DNA of 64,000 nucleotides from a virus: IMG/VR virus record IMGVR_UViG_3300046514_000542. One strand, 5' to 3'. Shown one piece after another: positions 13,907 to 63,431 of this stretch (position 1 is the stretch's first letter; every line of letters begins with the position of its first letter). A program made the translations under genes and the position numbers. The notes below the pieces were generated by a model, which saw nothing but the letters and a program-made list of their open reading frames with translations, was not told the DNA's origin and ran no database searches.

Positions 13907-14431
13907 ATGCCTGAGCTTTATATTGGTAATTTCTCTAAGCAAATTCATCAATTTGCTTATCGTGCCTTAGAACGTAATGGTGTGATTTATCAAACAATTC
14001 CGATTGGTGGTCAAATTCGAATTGCACCCAATGGTTCTAAAACTGATTTATCAACACAAGAAATTGATTATGTTATTGATCAATATCGGCATTATGGTAT
14101 AATACCGATTGATGAAATATCAAAGATTGATGCATTCAGTAGTCTTTGTTATTCGATTGGTAAGCCAATTTCTGCTGAAAAGCTAGGTAGGTTGATGCGT
14201 AAGAAAGAAGAAGCTTTAATCGCACAAGGTAAAACAATTCAACAAGAAGCGGCGCTTGCTGTGAATTCACAGATCGAAGAGCAAATTGGTGCACCATTGC
14301 GTCAGTTGGAAATGAGTGTGACTGAGGATGAACCTCGGGCTGGATTTGCTGAAGATACAATTCATGTAGCTGAAGGTGTTCGTGTTACTAGGTCAGAACC
14401 ACTTGAACAGAGTCGTCGCAGTAGACACTGA
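13907..14431 (+). CDS. hypothetical protein (head completion candidate)
   Basis: ATG 13907 after GGAGG; the track start 13895 is TTG. Confidence 0.5.
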   Translation: MPELYIGNFSKQIHQFAYRALERNGVIYQTIPIGGQIRIAPNGSKTDLSTQEIDYVIDQYRHYGIIPIDEISKIDAFSSLCYSIGKPISAEKLGRLMRKKEEALIAQGKTIQQEAALAVNSQIEEQIGAPLRQLEMSVTEDEPRAGFAEDTIHVAEGVRVTRSEPLEQSRRSRH

Positions 14432-14946
14432 TGCCCAACGTAGTTTTACATTCAGCGCAAGTAACTGTGACTGGACCAGACTATCCAGTGGGTGGTCCAA
14501 CTTATGCTGGATTTGTGGTGTGGGTGTCTGAAATTATGGGTGTGCCACCTGAAGCTATGCCTAATGATTTTACACTTCAAATGGCATATGATACAGCTTT
14601 AAATCTAGCATATATTGGATTAGCAACTATTCCTAGCCAACCAACATCACCATCTATTTATGCGATTGCTGTCTATAATCTTGGTGGGGCGTTCTTAGTT
14701 GAGTTTGCGCAAGATGTACCACCGAGTACATATTGGACTGACTTACGAAATAAGCTAGGTATTTATTCAGCTTCGTTTGGGATTATTACTTCTGCTCATG
14801 ATCAAGGGACATCTGATAGTTTATATATTCCTGAAACAATAAAAAATATGACATTATTAGATCTTCAGTTAATGAAATCCCCATGGGGCCGTATGTATCT
14901 TATGCTTGCTGGTGAATGGGGTTCACTCTGGGGTATTACAATATGA
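14431..14946 (+). CDS. hypothetical protein (head-tail connector candidate)
   Basis: TGATG overlap with the upstream gene. Lies between the capsid and sheath genes. Confidence 0.5.
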   Translation: MPNVVLHSAQVTVTGPDYPVGGPTYAGFVVWVSEIMGVPPEAMPNDFTLQMAYDTALNLAYIGLATIPSQPTSPSIYAIAVYNLGGAFLVEFAQDVPPSTYWTDLRNKLGIYSASFGIITSAHDQGTSDSLYIPETIKNMTLLDLQLMKSPWGRMYLMLAGEWGSLWGITI

Positions 14947-15263
14947 AAATAAATTTTGGGTTTGAATCTATTACATATCCTGTTCGAACAGTAACCTCAT
15001 TGTCAGGAGTAGGTATTATTTCTGCATTACCAATGAAGAAGCAACTGGTTAAGAAATCTTCTAAGGTCGCAACGCTGCCTTCTAAAACGGCACCATCTGT
15101 AACGATTAAAGCGGTTTCTAAAAATGAACATGGGTTTTCTTCTGAAATGGAACGCCAATATCGTGAGTGGCGGCGTGGTGGTGCGGCTGGTCCTTCTCAT
15201 GCCAGGACTCTTTGGGCAGAGCAGTTTGAAAAACGGCTAAAGAAAGATTTAACTGGAAAATAA
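14943..15263 (+). CDS. hypothetical protein
   Basis: ATGA overlap at 14943. Confidence 0.45.
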   Translation: MKINFGFESITYPVRTVTSLSGVGIISALPMKKQLVKKSSKVATLPSKTAPSVTIKAVSKNEHGFSSEMERQYREWRRGGAAGPSHARTLWAEQFEKRLKKDLTGK

Positions 15264-15266
15264 AAG

Positions 15267-15614
15267 ATGAGCATCACAACAGTTGCTATAGCTAAGATAT
15301 TAGAAGAAAAATATCATATTGTTGAAAATTTTTATATAATGGAAGAAGACTATATAAGTGATTTAATAGAAGAAGCTTTTGGTGAAGAAATTGAAAAAGT
15401 AATGATGATGAAACGACTTACTAAAAAAAGTAGAGGGTTTTCAGATAAAACTACTGATAAAATAGTGAAAAGATTTCAGCGAAATTTGGCAAGAAGAGCT
15501 TATGATGGATTTATTACTGGGGTTCCAACTAAAGCTTCAATAAAAGATTCTCGCCCTAGTTTTATTGATACTGGGTTATACTCACAGTCTTTTCGTACAT
15601 GGGTAGAAGATTAA
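15267..15614 (+). CDS. hypothetical protein (115 aa)
   Basis: ATG 15267. Charged and helical. Confidence 0.5.
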   Translation: MSITTVAIAKILEEKYHIVENFYIMEEDYISDLIEEAFGEEIEKVMMMKRLTKKSRGFSDKTTDKIVKRFQRNLARRAYDGFITGVPTKASIKDSRPSFIDTGLYSQSFRTWVED

Positions 15615-16931
15615 ATGGCCTCAGTAACTGATGCCTTAAACTCTAAACCTCCGTTAGGCGCTACGCTTGAAGCTGGTGTACGACAGTTATCAGCTAATCA
15701 ACAGTTATCATTTTCTCTATATCGTAAATACATCTTTCCTCTCGATGGTATGAATTATTGGATAAGAGTGCCGTCTAGTCCAAACCCGGTTACAACTCCT
15801 GGTATCTTACCAATGCCGGGATTAGCCACGCAGACGGTCCAAGATGGTGAAGCAATACAAGTTTCCCCTGGTGGGCCTCTTGCACATTTTATCGTTGGTG
15901 GTACTATCTATAATCCTCTTAGTGCTAATGATCAAGGGCTTAGCAACGTCGAGTCTCTTTTTGTGGACTTTACTGGTCCAGCTTATTCTTATTCTACTGC
16001 CACCACACGTGAATTAAAGCCTGGAAGTAATATAGATATCCCGGCTAACTGTACTCCTGGTGCATGGGTTTGTGCTGCGAGTGGAAAACACAAATTCGTA
16101 TGTATGTTGCAGCGAACTACTCCTTCTGTTACTTTGCCTACAGATGTAGATGTAGTTGGTTCATTTCACTATGCAACAACTACTAATCAAGAGGAAGATT
16201 CAACATTTGATGTTAATGAGGTTGTTTTTACATCGTTATCAGAAATTCAACAGTTTAATCAAATAGGGCCAGATTTTTTATACCTCTGTCATTATGATGA
16301 TTTAATATTTGCTTTTGATTCTAGGGCTTGGTTATATGAACAGGCCGATCTTTACCATTATCGTGGTAGGGCGTTGAAAAGTAAGAATGTAACACAGATT
16401 GTTGAGGATCCTACTAATTTTCATCCTACACTTTCAGTTTCTAATTCTCTCCCTATTTGGTTGTATATGCAGATCTATGTGCCACCGTATCCGGGATTTA
16501 CATGTCCGTTTGTTTTATATCCATCTTTTCTAGTTGATGATAACTTACCGCCTCCGTTTGGATCTGTGCATATTGAAGATACCAGCGTACTTCAAATGAA
16601 TGCATATTTAGGACCAAGGCTCCAATCTAGTCAACTATGTCGGGAAACAGTAAAGATTCACTTGTTTGGTGTGAATAATGAAAAAGCAATTGATTTTATG
16701 AATTTTGTGACACAATATTCTCGTGACTGGAATTATATTGGGCTTGCAGAAAGCCCAGCTATAAATGATGAAAAGGATGTACAACCGGAAATGAAGATTA
16801 TCAGTAAACGGAAATACATAGAATTTGATATTAATTATTGTCAGTCAGTTAGCCGTGACATGGCTCGTCAGTTAATAGAACATGCTAAAGTTCAGTTCTA
16901 TAACCCACGTTGGTTTATAGACGCAACTTAG
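15615..16931 (+). CDS. hypothetical structural protein (438 aa)
   Basis: Contiguous with its neighbours in the late operon. Confidence 0.5.
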   Translation: MASVTDALNSKPPLGATLEAGVRQLSANQQLSFSLYRKYIFPLDGMNYWIRVPSSPNPVTTPGILPMPGLATQTVQDGEAIQVSPGGPLAHFIVGGTIYNPLSANDQGLSNVESLFVDFTGPAYSYSTATTRELKPGSNIDIPANCTPGAWVCAASGKHKFVCMLQRTTPSVTLPTDVDVVGSFHYATTTNQEEDSTFDVNEVVFTSLSEIQQFNQIGPDFLYLCHYDDLIFAFDSRAWLYEQADLYHYRGRALKSKNVTQIVEDPTNFHPTLSVSNSLPIWLYMQIYVPPYPGFTCPFVLYPSFLVDDNLPPPFGSVHIEDTSVLQMNAYLGPRLQSSQLCRETVKIHLFGVNNEKAIDFMNFVTQYSRDWNYIGLAESPAINDEKDVQPEMKIISKRKYIEFDINYCQSVSRDMARQLIEHAKVQFYNPRWFIDAT

Positions 16932-36570: not shown

Positions 36571-37482
36571 ATGACGCTAACTCTTACAAATTGCGCCATT
36601 GGTGATGCACGTCCAGTAACTGTTCCTATAGATATCTATGGGAATACTTCTCAAGTAGTTGCGATAGCTCCATCAACAGATACTGTCGATACAAACCGTG
36701 TTCTATTTACCGGTAGCTCTTCATATAATGTTACTGTTACATCTTTAGGTGTTGGGCCGAGTTGGGATATTACAAAAGAAGTAATTTGGAATCCTGTAAG
36801 TGCTCATACTATCGTATTACAGAATAATGCTGGTTTGATTTTGCTTGGTCATGCAACCAGAACTATTTCAAATAAATCTATTGGCACGTATCATTGGGAT
36901 TATATTTCTCAAATTTGGACAGAAGAAAACTTTGTAGACACCACGGTTGTTGGAGGTGGCGGCGGACCAGCAGGGCCTCCAGGTCCAGCAGGTCCCACCG
37001 GTCCAACTGGAGCAACTGGTCCCCCAGGTCCTACTGGCCCAGCTTCTACAGTCCCAGGTCCAACTGGCCCTACAGGTCCAACTGGCCCTACAGGTCCAAC
37101 TGGTACTACAGGATCTACTGGTGCAACTGGTCCTGCCGGTGTAGACGGAAACACAGTTCTCTATGGCACTGTTAATCCAACTTCTGGATTAGGGGTCAAT
37201 GGCAATTTTTATATCAATACAACTACGAATTTTATCTTTGGACCAAAGGCTGGAGGAGCATGGCCTGCTGGTACATCACTCGTAGGTCCTACTGGTGCAA
37301 CAGGTCCAACGGGTCCTACTGGTGCAACAGGTCCTACAGGACCAGCAGGTGCAGGTTCACCATCCACCGTATTACCATTGATGAATGGTACTGCTGCGAT
37401 TGGTACTTCGACTAATTTTTCTCGCGAAGACCATGTGCATCCCAGTGACACTAACCTAACAATAGATTGCGGTACGTTCTGA
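36571..37482 (+). CDS. collagen-like tail fibre protein
   Basis: Two G-X-Y tracts, at about nt 36952-37143 and 37282-37353 ([26 protein letters not shown]...). Confidence 0.75.
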
Positions 37483-39510: not shown

Positions 39511-39821
39511 TGTCATGGATTAGATCTGGCTTCTGCAACCGTTGTGGTGAATGTTGTGTCGGCTCGCCTGGATGGGCGGGCCGATCTGATTTAGAGACTG
39601 ACGACTCCATGCGGCGTGAACCACCGGTCAAAGGCATGTGCCCTTTGTATGAACTACATGTCGGTGCACCCGAAGGCGATGGCTTTTGCATTGGGCACGA
39701 GCCTCCTAATCAGCATCCATACTATTTGACCGGGTGTAATGTCTGGCCACAACACCCGGATAATATTGCCAATTGCCCTTCATGTTCATATACGTTTACA
39801 TGGATAGCTGATGGCGACTAA
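39510..39821 (+). CDS. Cys-rich protein with CxxCxxCC motif (YkgJ/zinc-or-iron-chelating type)
   Basis: ATG 39510 overlaps the upstream TAA. FCNRCGECCVG plus further Cys residues (CPLY, FCIGH, CNVW, CPSC). Confidence 0.5.
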   Translation: MSWIRSGFCNRCGECCVGSPGWAGRSDLETDDSMRREPPVKGMCPLYELHVGAPEGDGFCIGHEPPNQHPYYLTGCNVWPQHPDNIANCPSCSYTFTWIADGD

Positions 39822-42800
39822 GGTTTTCTACGTTCTTAATACCGCTGCAACCACACCAGATTGGTTTGGGGTTCTGCAGGATGGTGGATCTGCGCCTACA
39901 GATGCAGCGTGCACATTCGGTTATGCTCCCGGCAAATTGGCGATTAGCAGTTATTGTCGTTCGAGGCTTGGTGCTTCTGGTACATCTGGCACTACGGCAA
40001 CCACATCATATATTAGTGGAGCAACAGGTCCAACAGCAGGTACTGGAGCAACAGGCACCACTGCCGGTGATTGTTTCAGTACTTCGTCTACTTATTATGG
40101 AACTTTTGCTTCTGGTACTTGGACATTCGTTTGGAACTTGCGTGGTAGCACGGCCGGTATGGTCGGCCGCTTGGGAATGCGGGTCTGGGCGAGTACCAAT
40201 GTCAGTGGTACTGGCGCACGTGAACTAACATCTGGTGAAATTTTTGGTACTTCACAAACAATATCAACAACTGTTAATACTAATTCTGGTATCAGTTGGG
40301 CGGCTCCTGCTATAACTCTTGCTAATGAATATTTATTCTTCCAGCTGGAGTGGCAAGAACAGACTACTGCAGGATCAAGCAACTCAGATAATGCTTTCTT
40401 CCGAGTTGGAAGTAGTATTACTACGACGAACTGGTCACCGATAGTTGATGGTGATCTTATTCTACCTCAAGCTGCGCAAACACTTTCAGCAGCCGGTAAC
40501 TCTATTGTTGATGGCGATCTGATTCTCCCGCAAGCCGTGCAGACCCTTTCAGCGGCGGGTGGACCAGTTGTTCGCGGCACGCTCGCCAGGACCGAGATTG
40601 ACGACACCCTGGCCGCGACGGGAACGAACGGCGCTGCTGCTGGTACAATTCTTTTCTATTGCCCAGCTAGTGTTGCACTCTCAAATAGTAACTTAACCGC
40701 AACAAAAATTAGTGGCTCAGGATATGCAACTACTTATTCTCAATCAACTAGAGGAGCAACTAAAGTTTATGCAGAGGTTCATATTGATTATTTTAGTACC
40801 GTAATTCATCTTATAGGAATAGGCACGACTGGTGAATCTTTAACTGCATATGTAGGGTCTTCTGCAACTTCATACGGTTGGAATGGTGGTGGTAATATCT
40901 ATCACAGTGGGACGTCCGGTGCCACGGTTTCAAGTTTTACTCAAGGAGATTGGCTTGCATTTGCACTTGATCGAACTGGGCCAATTTTTCAAATTCGAAA
41001 TATTACTCAAGGAGGTGCGTGGTCCAGCTCATTATCAGCTAGTGGGTTTGATACCACCGATGCCTGCTTAGGAGTATCTCTGTATGATAATTCTAATGCT
41101 GCCACTTTTAATTTTGATGGGACATTTTTAGGAACTCCCCCTGGCTCTGGCTATACGCGATGGGATGGCTCATCCATCAGCGGCGCTCCGGGCACCATCA
41201 CCGGCACGCTCAACCTTATTGAGGCCGACGACACGATTGCGGCGGCTGGCGGCTCTATTGTTGAGGGTCATCTCGGCACGGTTGGCGCAAGTGGCACTCC
41301 GACGACGGTCTACAACAATACGTTCGATGCGACCGATACCAATTGGGGTAATGAAACTCACGTTGTCCAAGTTGGAGCGGGTAACCTAGCCGCTGGGTCT
41401 GGCACACAGGTTCGGCTCACACTGGAATTTGCGGTCTTTGGCGCAGGCGAGACATGCAAGATTTATTTCGGGCAGCAGGCGATAAGTGGTGATCCGCAAG
41501 ATTTTGCCAATACGCCCGCACACGTCACGTTTGGCGGCGGCAATATCACAAGTGACGGATCGACGCTGGTTTATGTTTCGGACTGGGTCGATTTGCCAGA
41601 GGCTTACGACGAGACCAAGAACTATATTCATTGTCAGTATTACGCCCCCGGTTCCGTTAATCTACGAAACACGTTTCGAGTAGGGAATGATCAATGGTAC
41701 TTGGCCGCAGGCGGTGATGACGCGGCGACGGTCGACAAGACCGCTTCGAATTATCTGCATTGGGCTTCGAACAATGCAATTTTAGTAAGGACGATTGAGG
41801 TCCGTGGTGTCGCTGCGCCAGCGGGTATCGTCCAAGCCGATCAGACGCTCGCCGCCGCTGGCAGTGTCGGGGAGACAACCGGCATCTCTGGCGGGCTCAC
41901 CGTCATACAGGCTAACCAGACCTTAGTCGCCGCTGGCGTCGTTACGATTAACGGCACGCTCAGTGTCCAGCAGGCATCGCAAACCCTGGTGGCAATTGGT
42001 ACTGTTCTAGTTCGTGGCACGCTTTCTGCCCCACAGACTAACCAGACATTGGTTTCTGTTGGTGGGCCTGTTGTCAGTGGCGCTCTTAGTACTCTACAAG
42101 CAAATCAAACGATAGTTTCCGCTGGTACAGTTCAAGTCCGTGGCACGCTTTCTGCCCCACAGGCAAACCAGACACTAGTATCAATCGGTGGCCCTGTTGT
42201 TCGAGGCACTCTTAGTGCCCCGCAAGCCGCGCAAACTCTATCTGCCGGTGGTTCTGTTATTTCTGGTATCAGTGGTACACTCAATCTTCTTCAAGCATCA
42301 CAAACATTATCAGCTACCGGTACAGTTCCAGTCGTATGTTTCGGTAGTCTAAATCTTCCGCAAGCAGCACAGACACTTGCTGCTGCTGGATCACCAATTG
42401 TCAGTAGTACTCTTAGTACCCCACAAGCAAATCAGACACTTGTATCTGTTGGCAAGGTAACTGTTTCTGGTGTATTGAATAGCATCCAAGTAACCCAGAC
42501 AATTGTATCCACCGGCAAAGTGGTTGTTTCTGGTATTCTTAGTTCTGTGCAAGAGAGCCAATCATTACAAGCAACCGGCACAGTTTCAATTCGCGGTACT
42601 CTAAATGTTAATCAGTACTCTCAAACATTATCAGCTGCTGGCGCTGTCTATGGTACCGCTATCGGCACATTGCGTGTTACTCAACAAGATCAATGGATAA
42701 CAGCTACCGGTGTAGCCGGTGTTATAAAGGACTATTGGATATCAGACTCCATTCCATCACCAGATATAGTTATCCCACCACCCTATGTTCCTCCACCTAA

Positions 42801-42897
42801 TATTCCGTGGATGTCTAGTGAGGCTCCTTCATACCAACCCCCACTTCCTCCAGTAACTCCACCCCGGCAGGGCTGGTGGTCTGGGTCTATTCCTTAA
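39811..42897 (+). CDS. large repeat-containing fibre/adhesin-like protein with SPRY-like domain
   Basis: 1028 aa. SPRY-type pattern at about nt 40642-41130 (KVYAEVHIDYF..IGIG...SYGWNGGGNIYHSG...GDWLAFALDRTG..F). About 18 copies of a ~20-aa unit (..GTLSxPQAxQTLxSxG..V.V.). Pro-rich tail. Confidence 0.65.
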   Translation: MATKVFYVLNTAATTPDWFGVLQDGGSAPTDAACTFGYAPGKLAISSYCRSRLGASGTSGTTATTSYISGATGPTAGTGATGTTAGDCFSTSSTYYGTFASGTWTFVWNLRGSTAGMVGRLGMRVWASTNVSGTGARELTSGEIFGTSQTISTTVNTNSGISWAAPAITLANEYLFFQLEWQEQTTAGSSNSDNAFFRVGSSITTTNWSPIVDGDLILPQAAQTLSAAGNSIVDGDLILPQAVQTLSAAGGPVVRGTLARTEIDDTLAATGTNGAAAGTILFYCPASVALSNSNLTATKISGSGYATTYSQSTRGATKVYAEVHIDYFSTVIHLIGIGTTGESLTAYVGSSATSYGWNGGGNIYHSGTSGATVSSFTQGDWLAFALDRTGPIFQIRNITQGGAWSSSLSASGFDTTDACLGVSLYDNSNAATFNFDGTFLGTPPGSGYTRWDGSSISGAPGTITGTLNLIEADDTIAAAGGSIVEGHLGTVGASGTPTTVYNNTFDATDTNWGNETHVVQVGAGNLAAGSGTQVRLTLEFAVFGAGETCKIYFGQQAISGDPQDFANTPAHVTFGGGNITSDGSTLVYVSDWVDLPEAYDETKNYIHCQYYAPGSVNLRNTFRVGNDQWYLAAGGDDAATVDKTASNYLHWASNNAILVRTIEVRGVAAPAGIVQADQTLAAAGSVGETTGISGGLTVIQANQTLVAAGVVTINGTLSVQQASQTLVAIGTVLVRGTLSAPQTNQTLVSVGGPVVSGALSTLQANQTIVSAGTVQVRGTLSAPQANQTLVSIGGPVVRGTLSAPQAAQTLSAGGSVISGISGTLNLLQASQTLSATGTVPVVCFGSLNLPQAAQTLAAAGSPIVSSTLSTPQANQTLVSVGKVTVSGVLNSIQVTQTIVSTGKVVVSGILSSVQESQSLQATGTVSIRGTLNVNQYSQTLSAAGAVYGTAIGTLRVTQQDQWITATGVAGVIKDYWISDSIPSPDIVIPPPYVPPPNIPWMSSEAPSYQPPLPPVTPPRQGWWSGSIP
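41818..42714 (+). repeat. about 14 tandem ~60-66-nt coding repeats inside ORF 39811..42897
   Basis: Recurrent Q-x-x-Q-T-(L/I) cores (QADQTL, QANQTL, QASQTL, QTNQTL ...). Three more copies lie at about 40438-40635 and one near 41200. Confidence 0.75.
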
Positions 42898-61619: not shown

Positions 61620-61653
61620 GGTGACACTCCTATCTGTGTTTAGTACCATATAC

Positions 61654-61667
61654 CGTAAAGCATTTGA
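61654..61667 (-). promoter_or_regulatory. GCTTTAC-core motif copy (TCAAATGCTTTACG on the minus strand)
   Basis: 35 nt upstream of ATG 61619. Confidence 0.4.
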
Positions 61668-61788
61668 GCGCAAGGGGCCGTGCAAACGGCCCGTACAGCG
61701 GTGTTACCAGGGGGCGGTACCACCCTAGGCGCCCCCTAGTCAAAACGCACGGGCGGCCCGTTTGCGGGGCTCCACGAGGCCCGCAAAT

Positions 61789-62154
61789 TTACTTATTGCA
61801 ACGCCAGTATCGCCACCCATGCTTCGTATAATAGGTGCGACCCAACTTTCCACATACTGTGTCAGTAACCAGATTAGGTTGTGTCAACATAACCTGTTTG
61901 GATCTTACCACCGGTTGATCAAGTTCAGGTTCAGATTTCGTTATTATTTCAACTTTGACCGGGGTTGGAGGTGGGACCGGAAATACCGGAGCAGGTATTG
62001 GCATCACCGGTCCTCCTGGCTTTGCAGAGGCTGTCTTAGGTGCCACAACAGATGCAGCGTGTTGTCTGATTAACAACACTGATGCTAGCGATAGTGGGAT
62101 TAAAGCACCTATGACAACTGCCTTGATGATGTTGCCTTTAGATTCACGGCGCAT
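61789..62154 (-). CDS. single-pass membrane protein (121 aa)
   Basis: ATG 62154. TM segment IIKAVVIGALIPLSLASVLLI, a Pro-rich linker and a basic Cys-containing tail. The start lies 7 nt after the last array unit. Confidence 0.5.
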   Translation of the reverse strand: MRRESKGNIIKAVVIGALIPLSLASVLLIRQHAASVVAPKTASAKPGGPVMPIPAPVFPVPPPTPVKVEIITKSEPELDQPVVRSKQVMLTQPNLVTDTVCGKLGRTYYTKHGWRYWRCNK

Positions 62155-62161
62155 AGTAGTG

Positions 62162-63431
62162 TCTTTCGCTTTATTGTGATGGGTTTCTAGGATGGGATGG
62201 CACGCTTCCGTGGTTTGGATTTCTAGCTTTGAATGGCTCGCTTGCTCCTATTGGATTCCTAGTAGTGGATAGCACGCTCTGCATCTATGGATTACTGGAT
62301 AGACATGGCACGCTTCAACGTTGTGGGTTTCTCGATATCGTTGGCTCGCTTATCACTTGTGGGTTTCTACGTCCGGATGGCTCGCTGATGCCCAATGGGT
62401 TTCTGTGCTTTTCTGGCTCGCTTGCTGCATCGTGGGTTTCTAATCTTCTTTGGCGCGCTTGGCCGATTTGGGTTGCTATATGATGAAGGCCCGCTAAGTC
62501 TTGTGGATTTCTGTACAACGTGGCTCGCTACGAGTTCTGGGGTTCCTTATGTATTGTGGCTCGCTTTTCTCCTATGGATTTCTACCCAATCTATGGCACG
62601 CTCCTGCAACGTGGGTTTCTGGTCATTTGTGGCGCGCTTGCGGTTTATGGGTTTTCTAAGGTCGACTGGCTCGCTTATCAGATCTGGGTTACTAGATCGC
62701 AATGGCTCGCTGTCGATGATTGGGTTTCTCGCGACTGATGGCACGCTGATTGGCTCTGGGTTTCTATGGTTGGTTGGCTCGCTGAATGTGCTTGGGTTGC
62801 TCTGGCGCAGTGGCTCGCTCGTGACGATTGGGTTTCTTGCTTTCAATGGCTCGCTGACGCATCACGGATTTCTCGATTTACGTGGCTCGCTTTGTCCGAC
62901 TGGGTACCTACCACTTATGGCTCGCTCACGTTGCTTGGGTTACTGATCCAAGATGGCTCGCTAATCACCTTTAGGTTTCTTGAGTTCCTTGGCACGCTTT
63001 CCTCCTACGGGTTTCTATCCATGTCTTGGCTCGCTCTTATGATAGGGGTTTCTGCAGGAGCATGGCTCGCTTCCCTCTCTTGGATTACTACGGTCGAATG
63101 GCTCGCTTGCGTGATCTTGGGTTTCTAGCCTCGATGGCTCGCTGGACAACTTGGTATTCTCTCGTATTCTGGCTCGCTGGCCATGGTTGGGTTGCTACGT
63201 TTATCTGGCTCGCTGGAGGATGATGGTGTCCTCTCGTTTTCTGGCTCGCTAAATTCCATTGGATTTCTTACTCCTGATGGCTCGCTCACCGTCTTGGGGT
63301 TTCTACCAACCTCTGGCTCGCTTGCATGATTGTGGGTTTCTAACCTCTGATGGCTCGCTGTGCCTCACTGGGTTGCTCATCCGGTATGGCTCGCTTCGTT
63401 CCTATGGGTTTCTAACCAACTTTGGCTATTC
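62162..63431. repeat. tandem array of about 36 units of 36 bp: TGGCTCGCT-N9-TGGGTTTCT-N9
   Basis: TGGCNCGCT motifs at 62198, 62234, 62270 ... 63387 (34 well-formed units plus degenerate end units at 62162 and 63423). 25 of 33 intervals are exactly 36 bp. 25 copies are exactly TGGCTCGCT and 12 are exactly TGGGTTTCT. The intervening 9-mers are unrelated to each other. Confidence 0.95.

Follow-up and report, generated by a model that had tools for sequence, protein, structure and literature searches.

A 36-nucleotide dual-repeat array and its tasA neighbor in an uncultured tailed phage: a very probable TIGR-TasA locus

The DNA window analyzed here (the whole stretch of 64,000 nucleotides of the IMG/VR virus record IMGVR_UViG_3300046514_000542) contains a 1.27-kb block in which two constant 9-mers, TGGCTCGCT alternating with TGGGTTTCT on the plus strand at a half-period of 18 bp (motifs A and B), are separated by hypervariable 9-mers, and the question raised by this locus was what kind of element such a block represents. 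The original prediction, which was made from the nucleotide sequence alone, knew of no described element with this architecture and favored a centromere- or iteron-type array bound by ParB-fold proteins, naming as further options a repeat RNA acting as a guide and a target or by-product of an adjacent IS110-like recombinase. Our analysis indicates with high confidence that an uncultured tailed phage carries, in this block and its neighboring gene, a TIGR-TasA locus. The locus is clearly a new example of an already described system and not a new kind of element, since its architecture is that of the dual-repeat TIGR array (Faure et al., 2025, Science; PMC12045711); the statement that nothing of the kind had been described is outdated, and the guide RNA hypothesis was the correct one.

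Dual-repeat TIGR arrays consist of two distinct, alternating repeats of 8-12 nt with 9-nt spacers in a 36-nt unit, and a typical array has 5-15 units (Faure et al., 2025; PMC12045711). In both repeats the last three bases are CCA (box C) and the first two are box D, a dinucleotide that covaries between the edge and the loop repeat; the loop repeat is A-rich and tetraloop-like between the boxes, and a single additional Watson-Crick pair is found in the edge repeat (PMC12045711). The first edge repeat of published arrays is truncated at its 5' end and the last one at its 3' end, and a rho-independent terminator after the array is typical but not universal (PMC12045711).

When the block in the window was parsed motif by motif, a constant motif was found every 18 ± 1 bp, and the order on the minus strand was edge repeat AGCGAGCCA, spacer A (~9 nt), loop repeat AGAAACCCA and spacer B (~9 nt). 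The array comprises 35 complete units with 36 edge repeats (34 full-length and two truncated terminal copies) and 35 loop repeats, which bears out the predicted alternation of two constants with two variable 9-mers; this number of units exceeds the usual range, and related loci reach ~40. Unit length was 36 nt in 27 of the 35 units, 37 nt in five, 35 nt in two and 34 nt in one, and spacer length was 9 nt in 59 of the 70 spacers, 8 nt in five and 10 nt in six. A recount of the exact copies gave the numbers of the original prediction (motif A: 25, varying at position 5; motif B: 12). Substitutions were present in 9 of the 34 full-length edge repeats and in 23 loop repeats and lay only at position 5 of the edge repeat and positions 3-6 of the loop repeat, where the bases are unpaired in the TasR structure. 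Similarity among the spacers was close to that of shuffled sequence (mean spacer-to-spacer Hamming distance 6.65 vs 6.71 ± 0.03), as had been predicted, and no exact copy of the constant 9-mers was found outside the array on either strand of the 64-kb window.

The published box rules apply to both repeats of the window. Each ends in CCA on the minus strand, as the original prediction had noticed, and each begins with AG; the loop repeat (AG-AAAC-CCA) is A-rich between the boxes, and in the edge repeat (AG-C-GA-G-CCA) the complementary C3 and G6 supply the extra pair, a pairing beyond the reach of a covariation test as the paired bases hardly vary. The truncated terminal edge repeats (Table 1) match the published description, and of the sequence-level features of a dual-repeat TIGR-TasA locus only the terminator, which is optional, was missing. 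Tandem Repeats Finder picked up just a short piece of the array because half of each unit is unique. The CCA ends prompted a tRNA and tmRNA scan, which found none; Rfam searched at gathering thresholds over the whole window gave no match, and a full-text literature search for the four 9-mers returned just unrelated primer matches. An identical array, off-length units included, is present in the JGI (Joint Genome Institute) contig L093, a record that may derive from the same sample as the window; the shared off-length units argue against assembly noise if L093 is independent.

Table 1. Coordinates of the array, its two terminal repeats and the adjoining gene in the 64-kb window.
Feature	Coordinates	Strand	Remarks
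Dual-repeat TIGR array, 35 tigRNA units	62162..63431	(-)	Unit-by-unit parse; match to published repeats
tasA, 3' part (C-terminal 190 aa and stop)	63426..64000	(-)	Gene runs off the window end; 100% identical to P0001
First edge repeat, 5'-truncated, GAATAGCCA	63423..63431	(-)	AGCCA half kept; holds the tasA stop codon TAG
Last edge repeat, 3'-truncated, AGCGAAAGA	62162..62170	(-)	AGCGA half kept; 7 nt before the next ATG

The gene next to the array was characterized by means of the full-length protein (P0001, 312 aa as called), which is encoded by an intact gene in record L093. A profile built from the 44 sequences of its family matched in PDB only TaTasR (9mty, E 3.8e-19) and SpTasH (21kl, E 1.9e-17), and the alignment with TaTasR began at TasR residue 123, past the RuvC domain of that protein. 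The AlphaFold (AF2) model of P0001 had a mean pLDDT of 86.6, and in a Foldseek search of this model against PDB the top 11 matches were all TasR or TasH with a probability of 1.0, the next match having an E-value of 0.27. P0001 also aligned end to end with FpTasA (31% identity, E 1e-30). The N-terminal ~110 residues of the model form helices and no beta-strand, complete homologs are 311-316 aa long with only ~25 residues ahead of the conserved start, no nuclease Pfam match was obtained in the family, and neither a RuvC nor an HNH domain was seen in the profile or the model. Since this Tas-family protein has no nuclease domain, the neighbor of the array is a Nop-domain TasA. Its residues Y297 and H304 (TPTYHEAIQGH) correspond in the profile alignment to Y289 and H296 of SpTasH, the Tyr/His dyad in a C-terminal loop that processes pre-tigRNA (PMC13421893); the dyad is reported to be conserved across dual-repeat systems, and Y297 is invariant in the 44-sequence family alignment. 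Neither the window protein nor its contig was found in the accessible portion of Table S1 of PMC12045711.

The recombinase proposed in the original prediction is accounted for by the same protein. Weak matches to Pfam Transposase_20 (PF02371) were found in 37 of the 44 family members and explain both the "IS110-like" impression and annotations as "transposase", the latter being also the PHROGs assignment of the partial ORF (open reading frame) in the window (phrog_4285); the protein shares just its RNA-binding domain with IS110. As the neighbor is a TasA and not a recombinase, the idea of the array as target or by-product of a recombinase fails.

The association of such arrays with tas genes was evaluated across metagenomes, following the original proposal to look for similar arrays in relatives. 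An exact A-N9-B-N9-A search of IMG/VR found the same repeats in 92 stretches, with arrays ranging from ~100 bp to 1.5 kb and some contigs carrying two or three of them. Over 738 distinct units from other loci the constants were 93-100% conserved, and the variable positions were uninformative except for a purine immediately 5' of each repeat on the minus strand. Clustering of the neighboring ORFs, which covered 94 sequences (93 loci and the window), identified tas as the only widely conserved neighbor: the family was present in 68 of the 94 sequences, its genes directly abut an array on the upstream or downstream side, and all 69 of 69 copies are co-oriented with the array on the strand on which the repeats end in CCA. 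Among the proteins of the window, only the ORF upstream of the array had homologs in many loci.

Repeats AGCGAGCCA and AGAAACCCA also serve TasA proteins ~21-30% identical to that of the window (loci L001-L092), so that conservation is much stronger in the repeats than in the proteins. One-base variants of these repeats, as given in the accessible portions of the published descriptions, serve TasR (archaeal and candidate phyla radiation) and TasH (Salicola phage). This similarity raises the possibility that guides are interchangeable between Tas systems. A further TasA homolog (31% identity, E 2e-30) is ORF034 of Ralstonia phage phiRSL1 (L094, NC_010811.2; 13180-14217), annotated as "transposase"; it is followed by a 1.4-kb unannotated gap (14218-15642) with 18/36-nt periodic repeats of the AGTGnnCC and AGTCACCC type, which is apparently a TIGR array that the record of this cultured jumbo phage leaves unannotated.

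By analogy with characterized relatives, the TasA protein and its array likely function in RNA-guided DNA binding and repression. TIGR systems recognize 18 bp and need no protospacer-adjacent motif (PAM), their two spacers pairing with opposite strands (PMC12045711), FpTasA was shown to bind 36-nt tigRNAs (PMC12045711), and MbTasA was shown to bind DNA under RNA guidance and to repress reversibly. Judging from published relatives, tasA and the array would be transcribed together from the minus strand. That the array has a half edge repeat at either end and that the Y/H dyad is conserved both suggest processing of the transcript: the Tyr/His loop would cleave every edge repeat internally, with AGCG|AGCCA as the probable site, because the "half-edge" SpTasH construct starts at AGCCA and because the two terminal repeats are truncated. 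Cleavage would release 36-nt tigRNAs composed of 5'-AGCCA, spacer A, AGAAACCCA, spacer B and AGCG-3'. A TasA dimer loaded with a tigRNA would then recognize 18 bp of DNA without a PAM, spacer A pairing with one strand and, at the adjacent half-site, spacer B with the opposite one, and without a nuclease this binding would block transcription or replication of the target instead of cutting it. The 35 guides could thereby form a library against host genes or competing mobile elements; regulation of the phage itself is possible, with no supporting match in the window.

Several observations weigh against this interpretation of the locus as a functional TIGR-TasA system. Repression by TasA has been shown just for a distant stem-loop-type or a heterologous system, and box D of the window is AG and not the UG of TasR arrays (PMC12045711), although the SpTIGR array has AG as well. 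No terminator-like site was found on the minus strand between 60500 and 64000, including the region after the last repeat, where a terminator is typical, and a scan for sigma-70 promoters and terminators stayed at background level. With 11 of 70 spacers of 8 or 10 nt and 9 of 34 edge repeats substituted, some units of the array may be non-functional. Finally, the target searches, in which both half-site arrangements were tried (the reverse complement of spacer A followed by B, and B followed by the reverse complement of A), yielded no excess of matches over shuffled controls in the window or in all loci: with the array masked, the window contained one match with two mismatches vs 0.4 expected from partner-swapped guides, and 813 unique units compared with 1.5 Mb of loci gave no exact and three one-mismatch matches, the same as partner-shuffled controls. 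According to the literature natural TIGR targets are mostly undeterminable at present, and by our rough estimate, made without a tool, an exact 18-mer would have ~17 chance matches in a 596-Gb genome collection.

Some of these observations could also be expected of a decaying array that has escaped selection and no longer works as a guide library, an explanation which we consider improbable. The off-length spacers and the eight of 35 units that are not 36 nt long, the substituted repeats (9 full-length edge and 23 loop copies) and the missing terminator are in line with decay, as is the perfectly regular spacing of many related arrays, unlike that of the window. However, tasA is intact in the full-length record and has kept its Y/H dyad, the substitutions leave AG and CCA intact and lie almost exclusively where the TasR structure has unpaired or tolerant bases, 27 of the 35 units have exactly the canonical length, and published arrays accept spacers of up to 12 nt (PMC12045711).

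The centromere or iteron function put forward by the original prediction, in which the array would be bound at the DNA level by ParB-like proteins of the phage for partition or replication, was judged very improbable. The fixed 18-bp phasing of short boxes does resemble iteron and centromere arrays, and some tasA genes share their operon with a parB-like gene, "tasParB" (Faure et al., 2025; PMC12045711). A family of ~225 aa with a DGxHR (ParB-N-like) motif, probably this tasParB, was found directly upstream of a shorter TasA in 13 related loci (L020, L025, L027, L032, L040, L041, L044, L060, L062, L065, L074, L075, and L087), the gene pair often being both flanked and separated by arrays; locus L025 has two tasA copies and three arrays. 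The profile of this TasParB-like cluster reached ParB in PDB only at E 0.15-0.24 and nothing significant in Pfam.

In the window itself the "two ParB-fold genes" of the original prediction, from which the array is separated by two other genes, could not be confirmed. They had no significant ParB match in Pfam, PHROGs or PDB, and the follow-up found only two homologs and an AF2 model with a pLDDT of 44, too poor for a fold search. The 238-aa protein of the window, with its faint ParB-N-like motif, aligned with the TasParB-like cluster at 5 bits and an hhalign probability of 34% and faintly with ParB 6t1f (E 0.56), and the 293-aa protein matched nothing in the cluster or in PDB. The two genes are not conserved beside any related array, and in the TasA subclade of the window the relatives carry unrelated genes upstream and no tasParB; the sequence upstream of the window tasA lies outside the window, and L093 (2.5 kb) begins at the gene. 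Moreover, the repeats are strand-specific, being co-oriented with tas in 69 of 69 cases, and they match RNA motifs that are bound by Tas proteins in solved structures. A centromere or iteron function of the array is unsupported, as tas is the sole widely co-occurring gene (68 of 94 sequences) and the candidate ParB genes are not conserved at related arrays.

A protein-coding or recently pseudogenized 12-aa tandem repeat (SEPxxxRNPxxx on the minus and GSLxxxGFLxxx on the plus strand) has a negligible probability even though the 36-bp period is a multiple of three and open stretches reach 183 aa, since all six frames are interrupted by stop codons in the window as well as in indel-free relatives (e.g., the 837-bp array of L009, with a longest open stretch of 28%), conservation of the constant 9-mers extends to all codon positions, with random 9-mers between them, and the edge repeat varies at a second codon position. 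Relatives with an uninterrupted ORF, by which the original prediction would have been overturned, were looked for, and none of the related arrays was an ORF, even among those with perfect 18-bp phasing. An IS110 transposon was rejected, only the C-terminal RNA-binding domain being common (weak PF02371) and the N-terminal RNase H-fold domain being absent, and so was a CRISPR-Cas locus, with two different 9-mers instead of one 25-36-nt repeat and no Cas-family match among the neighbors and larger ORFs scanned.

The content of the arrays was compared between close relatives (L021/L029/L031/L069/L089, L007/L010/L058, and L009/L013). Loci whose TasA proteins are 96-99.5% identical shared 0-20% of their tigRNA units, and their flanking DNA was ~80-92% identical in the pairs compared. 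Best-match distances over the 18 variable bases were bimodal (0-3, or 8-11 as between unrelated arrays), shared units were non-colinear, some shared one spacer only, and one unit was duplicated inside the L089 array. Tentatively, this pattern might reflect turnover of array content by replacement and shuffling of whole 36-nt units and not CRISPR-like polar addition or drift by point mutation, a proposal that we regard as possible rather than probable. If unit-wise acquisition or recombination were active, the arrays would be fast-evolving guide libraries, and comparisons of close relatives could reveal how TIGR spacers are acquired, a question posed in the TIGR papers.

The genes flanking the array are all on the minus strand, so that the co-orientation noticed in the original prediction holds, and the array occupies all the space from the upstream ORF's stop codon (63426-63428, within the truncated first repeat) to the ATG of the membrane-type ORF at 62154, as the original prediction had stated. 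The order on this strand is the partial tasA ORF, the array, the membrane-type ORF (121 aa), a Pam3_Gp34-like gene, two genes (the "ParB-fold" genes of the original prediction) and a UvrD-type helicase gene. The 121-aa ORF (61789-62154, minus strand), which begins 7 nt past the last repeat, has a single hydrophobic helix and a segment rich in proline; with no terminator between this ORF and the array, read-through is possible, and the two may be co-transcribed. Beyond this ORF lies a GC-rich intergenic region (61625-61800) that folds no better than shuffled sequences (z = -1.09).

The remainder of the window encodes a terminase, portal, tail sheath, DNA polymerase, helicase, and thymidylate synthase, and the identity of the portal protein with its counterparts in Shewanella, Klebsiella, Pantoea, and Yersinia phages is 45-48%. 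Megablast of the region 58-64 kb against the INPHARED phages gave no match. With terminase, portal and tail sheath genes and no close relative at the DNA level in INPHARED, the window was therefore assigned to an uncultured myovirus-like phage. Two further repeat regions were observed: runs of 9-bp GGTCCAACT-type repeats (Gly-X-Y, collagen-like) at 36963-37353 inside a 303-aa ORF (36571-37482), and a 126-bp tandem duplication at 41997-42227 inside a 1028-aa ORF (39811-42897). Both ORFs probably encode tail-fibre proteins.

Blocks of this kind are annotated as nothing at all beside a "hypothetical protein" or "transposase", and recognizing them prevents false claims of novelty. A preprint of 2026 catalogued 6,685 arrays from 20,096 tas loci, and within such a collection the locus described here is a useful instance, with 35 guides and a 64-kb phage context that is far more than is available for TIGR loci on short metagenomic contigs; its partial tasA, being 100% identical to the intact full-length gene in L093, adds to this usefulness. 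Given the identity of the host, a locus with this much context would be a reasonable candidate for target hunting.

Compared with known systems, the locus resembles CRISPR arrays in its constant repeats and unique spacers, in the guide RNAs processed from such arrays and in the adjoining effector gene. Unlike CRISPR arrays it has two 9-nt repeats and not one of 25-36 nt, and each guide carries two 9-nt spacers for opposite strands; TIGR systems in general differ from CRISPR by having no cas genes, no known adaptation module and no PAM (PMC12045711). IS110 transposases with their bridge RNA have a homologous C-terminal RNA-binding domain (Nop-like, Pfam Transposase_20), whereas the locus of the window lacks a DEDD/RuvC domain and has a 35-unit array instead of a single two-loop bridge RNA.

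Closer parallels are found among the described TIGR systems, whose repeats were compared as they appear in the accessible portions of the sources. The repeats of the structurally and biochemically studied TaTIGR (Thermoproteota archaeon) and ParTIGR (Parcubacteria), TGCGAGCCA and TGAAACCCA, are both identical to those of the window at 8 of 9 positions with the first base changed, so that box D reads TG in both TaTIGR/ParTIGR repeats, compared with AG in the window and in both SpTIGR repeats. Like the window array, TaTIGR/ParTIGR-TasR (PDB 9MTY) has 9-nt spacers, and its Nop domain is homologous to that of the window protein (E 3.8e-19; top match in Foldseek). TaTasR and ParTasR possess an N-terminal RuvC domain and cut both strands, whereas the window protein starts at the Nop part of TasR and is not expected to cleave. 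The SpTIGR-TasH system of Salicola phage CGphi29 (PDB 9W03 and others) is likewise phage-borne, its edge repeat AAGCGAGCCA contains the same core AGCGAGCCA and thus AG in box D, its protein shares the Y/H dyad, and a half edge repeat opens the array immediately behind the stop codon of tas; it differs by its HNH nuclease, 10-nt repeats, 8-nt spacers and the loop repeat AAGACAACCA. FpTIGR-FpTasA from Flavonifractor plautii (PMC12045711) has the repeats AGTGTACC and AGTAACCC vs AGCGAGCCA and AGAAACCCA in the window, and the window array stands apart by its location in a myovirus-like phage genome, by its 35 units and by spacer lengths that vary within the array. The two systems share a solo Nop-domain effector without a nuclease, 31% identical over the whole length, an adjacent and co-oriented array, and a 36-nt two-spacer unit with box C/D logic.

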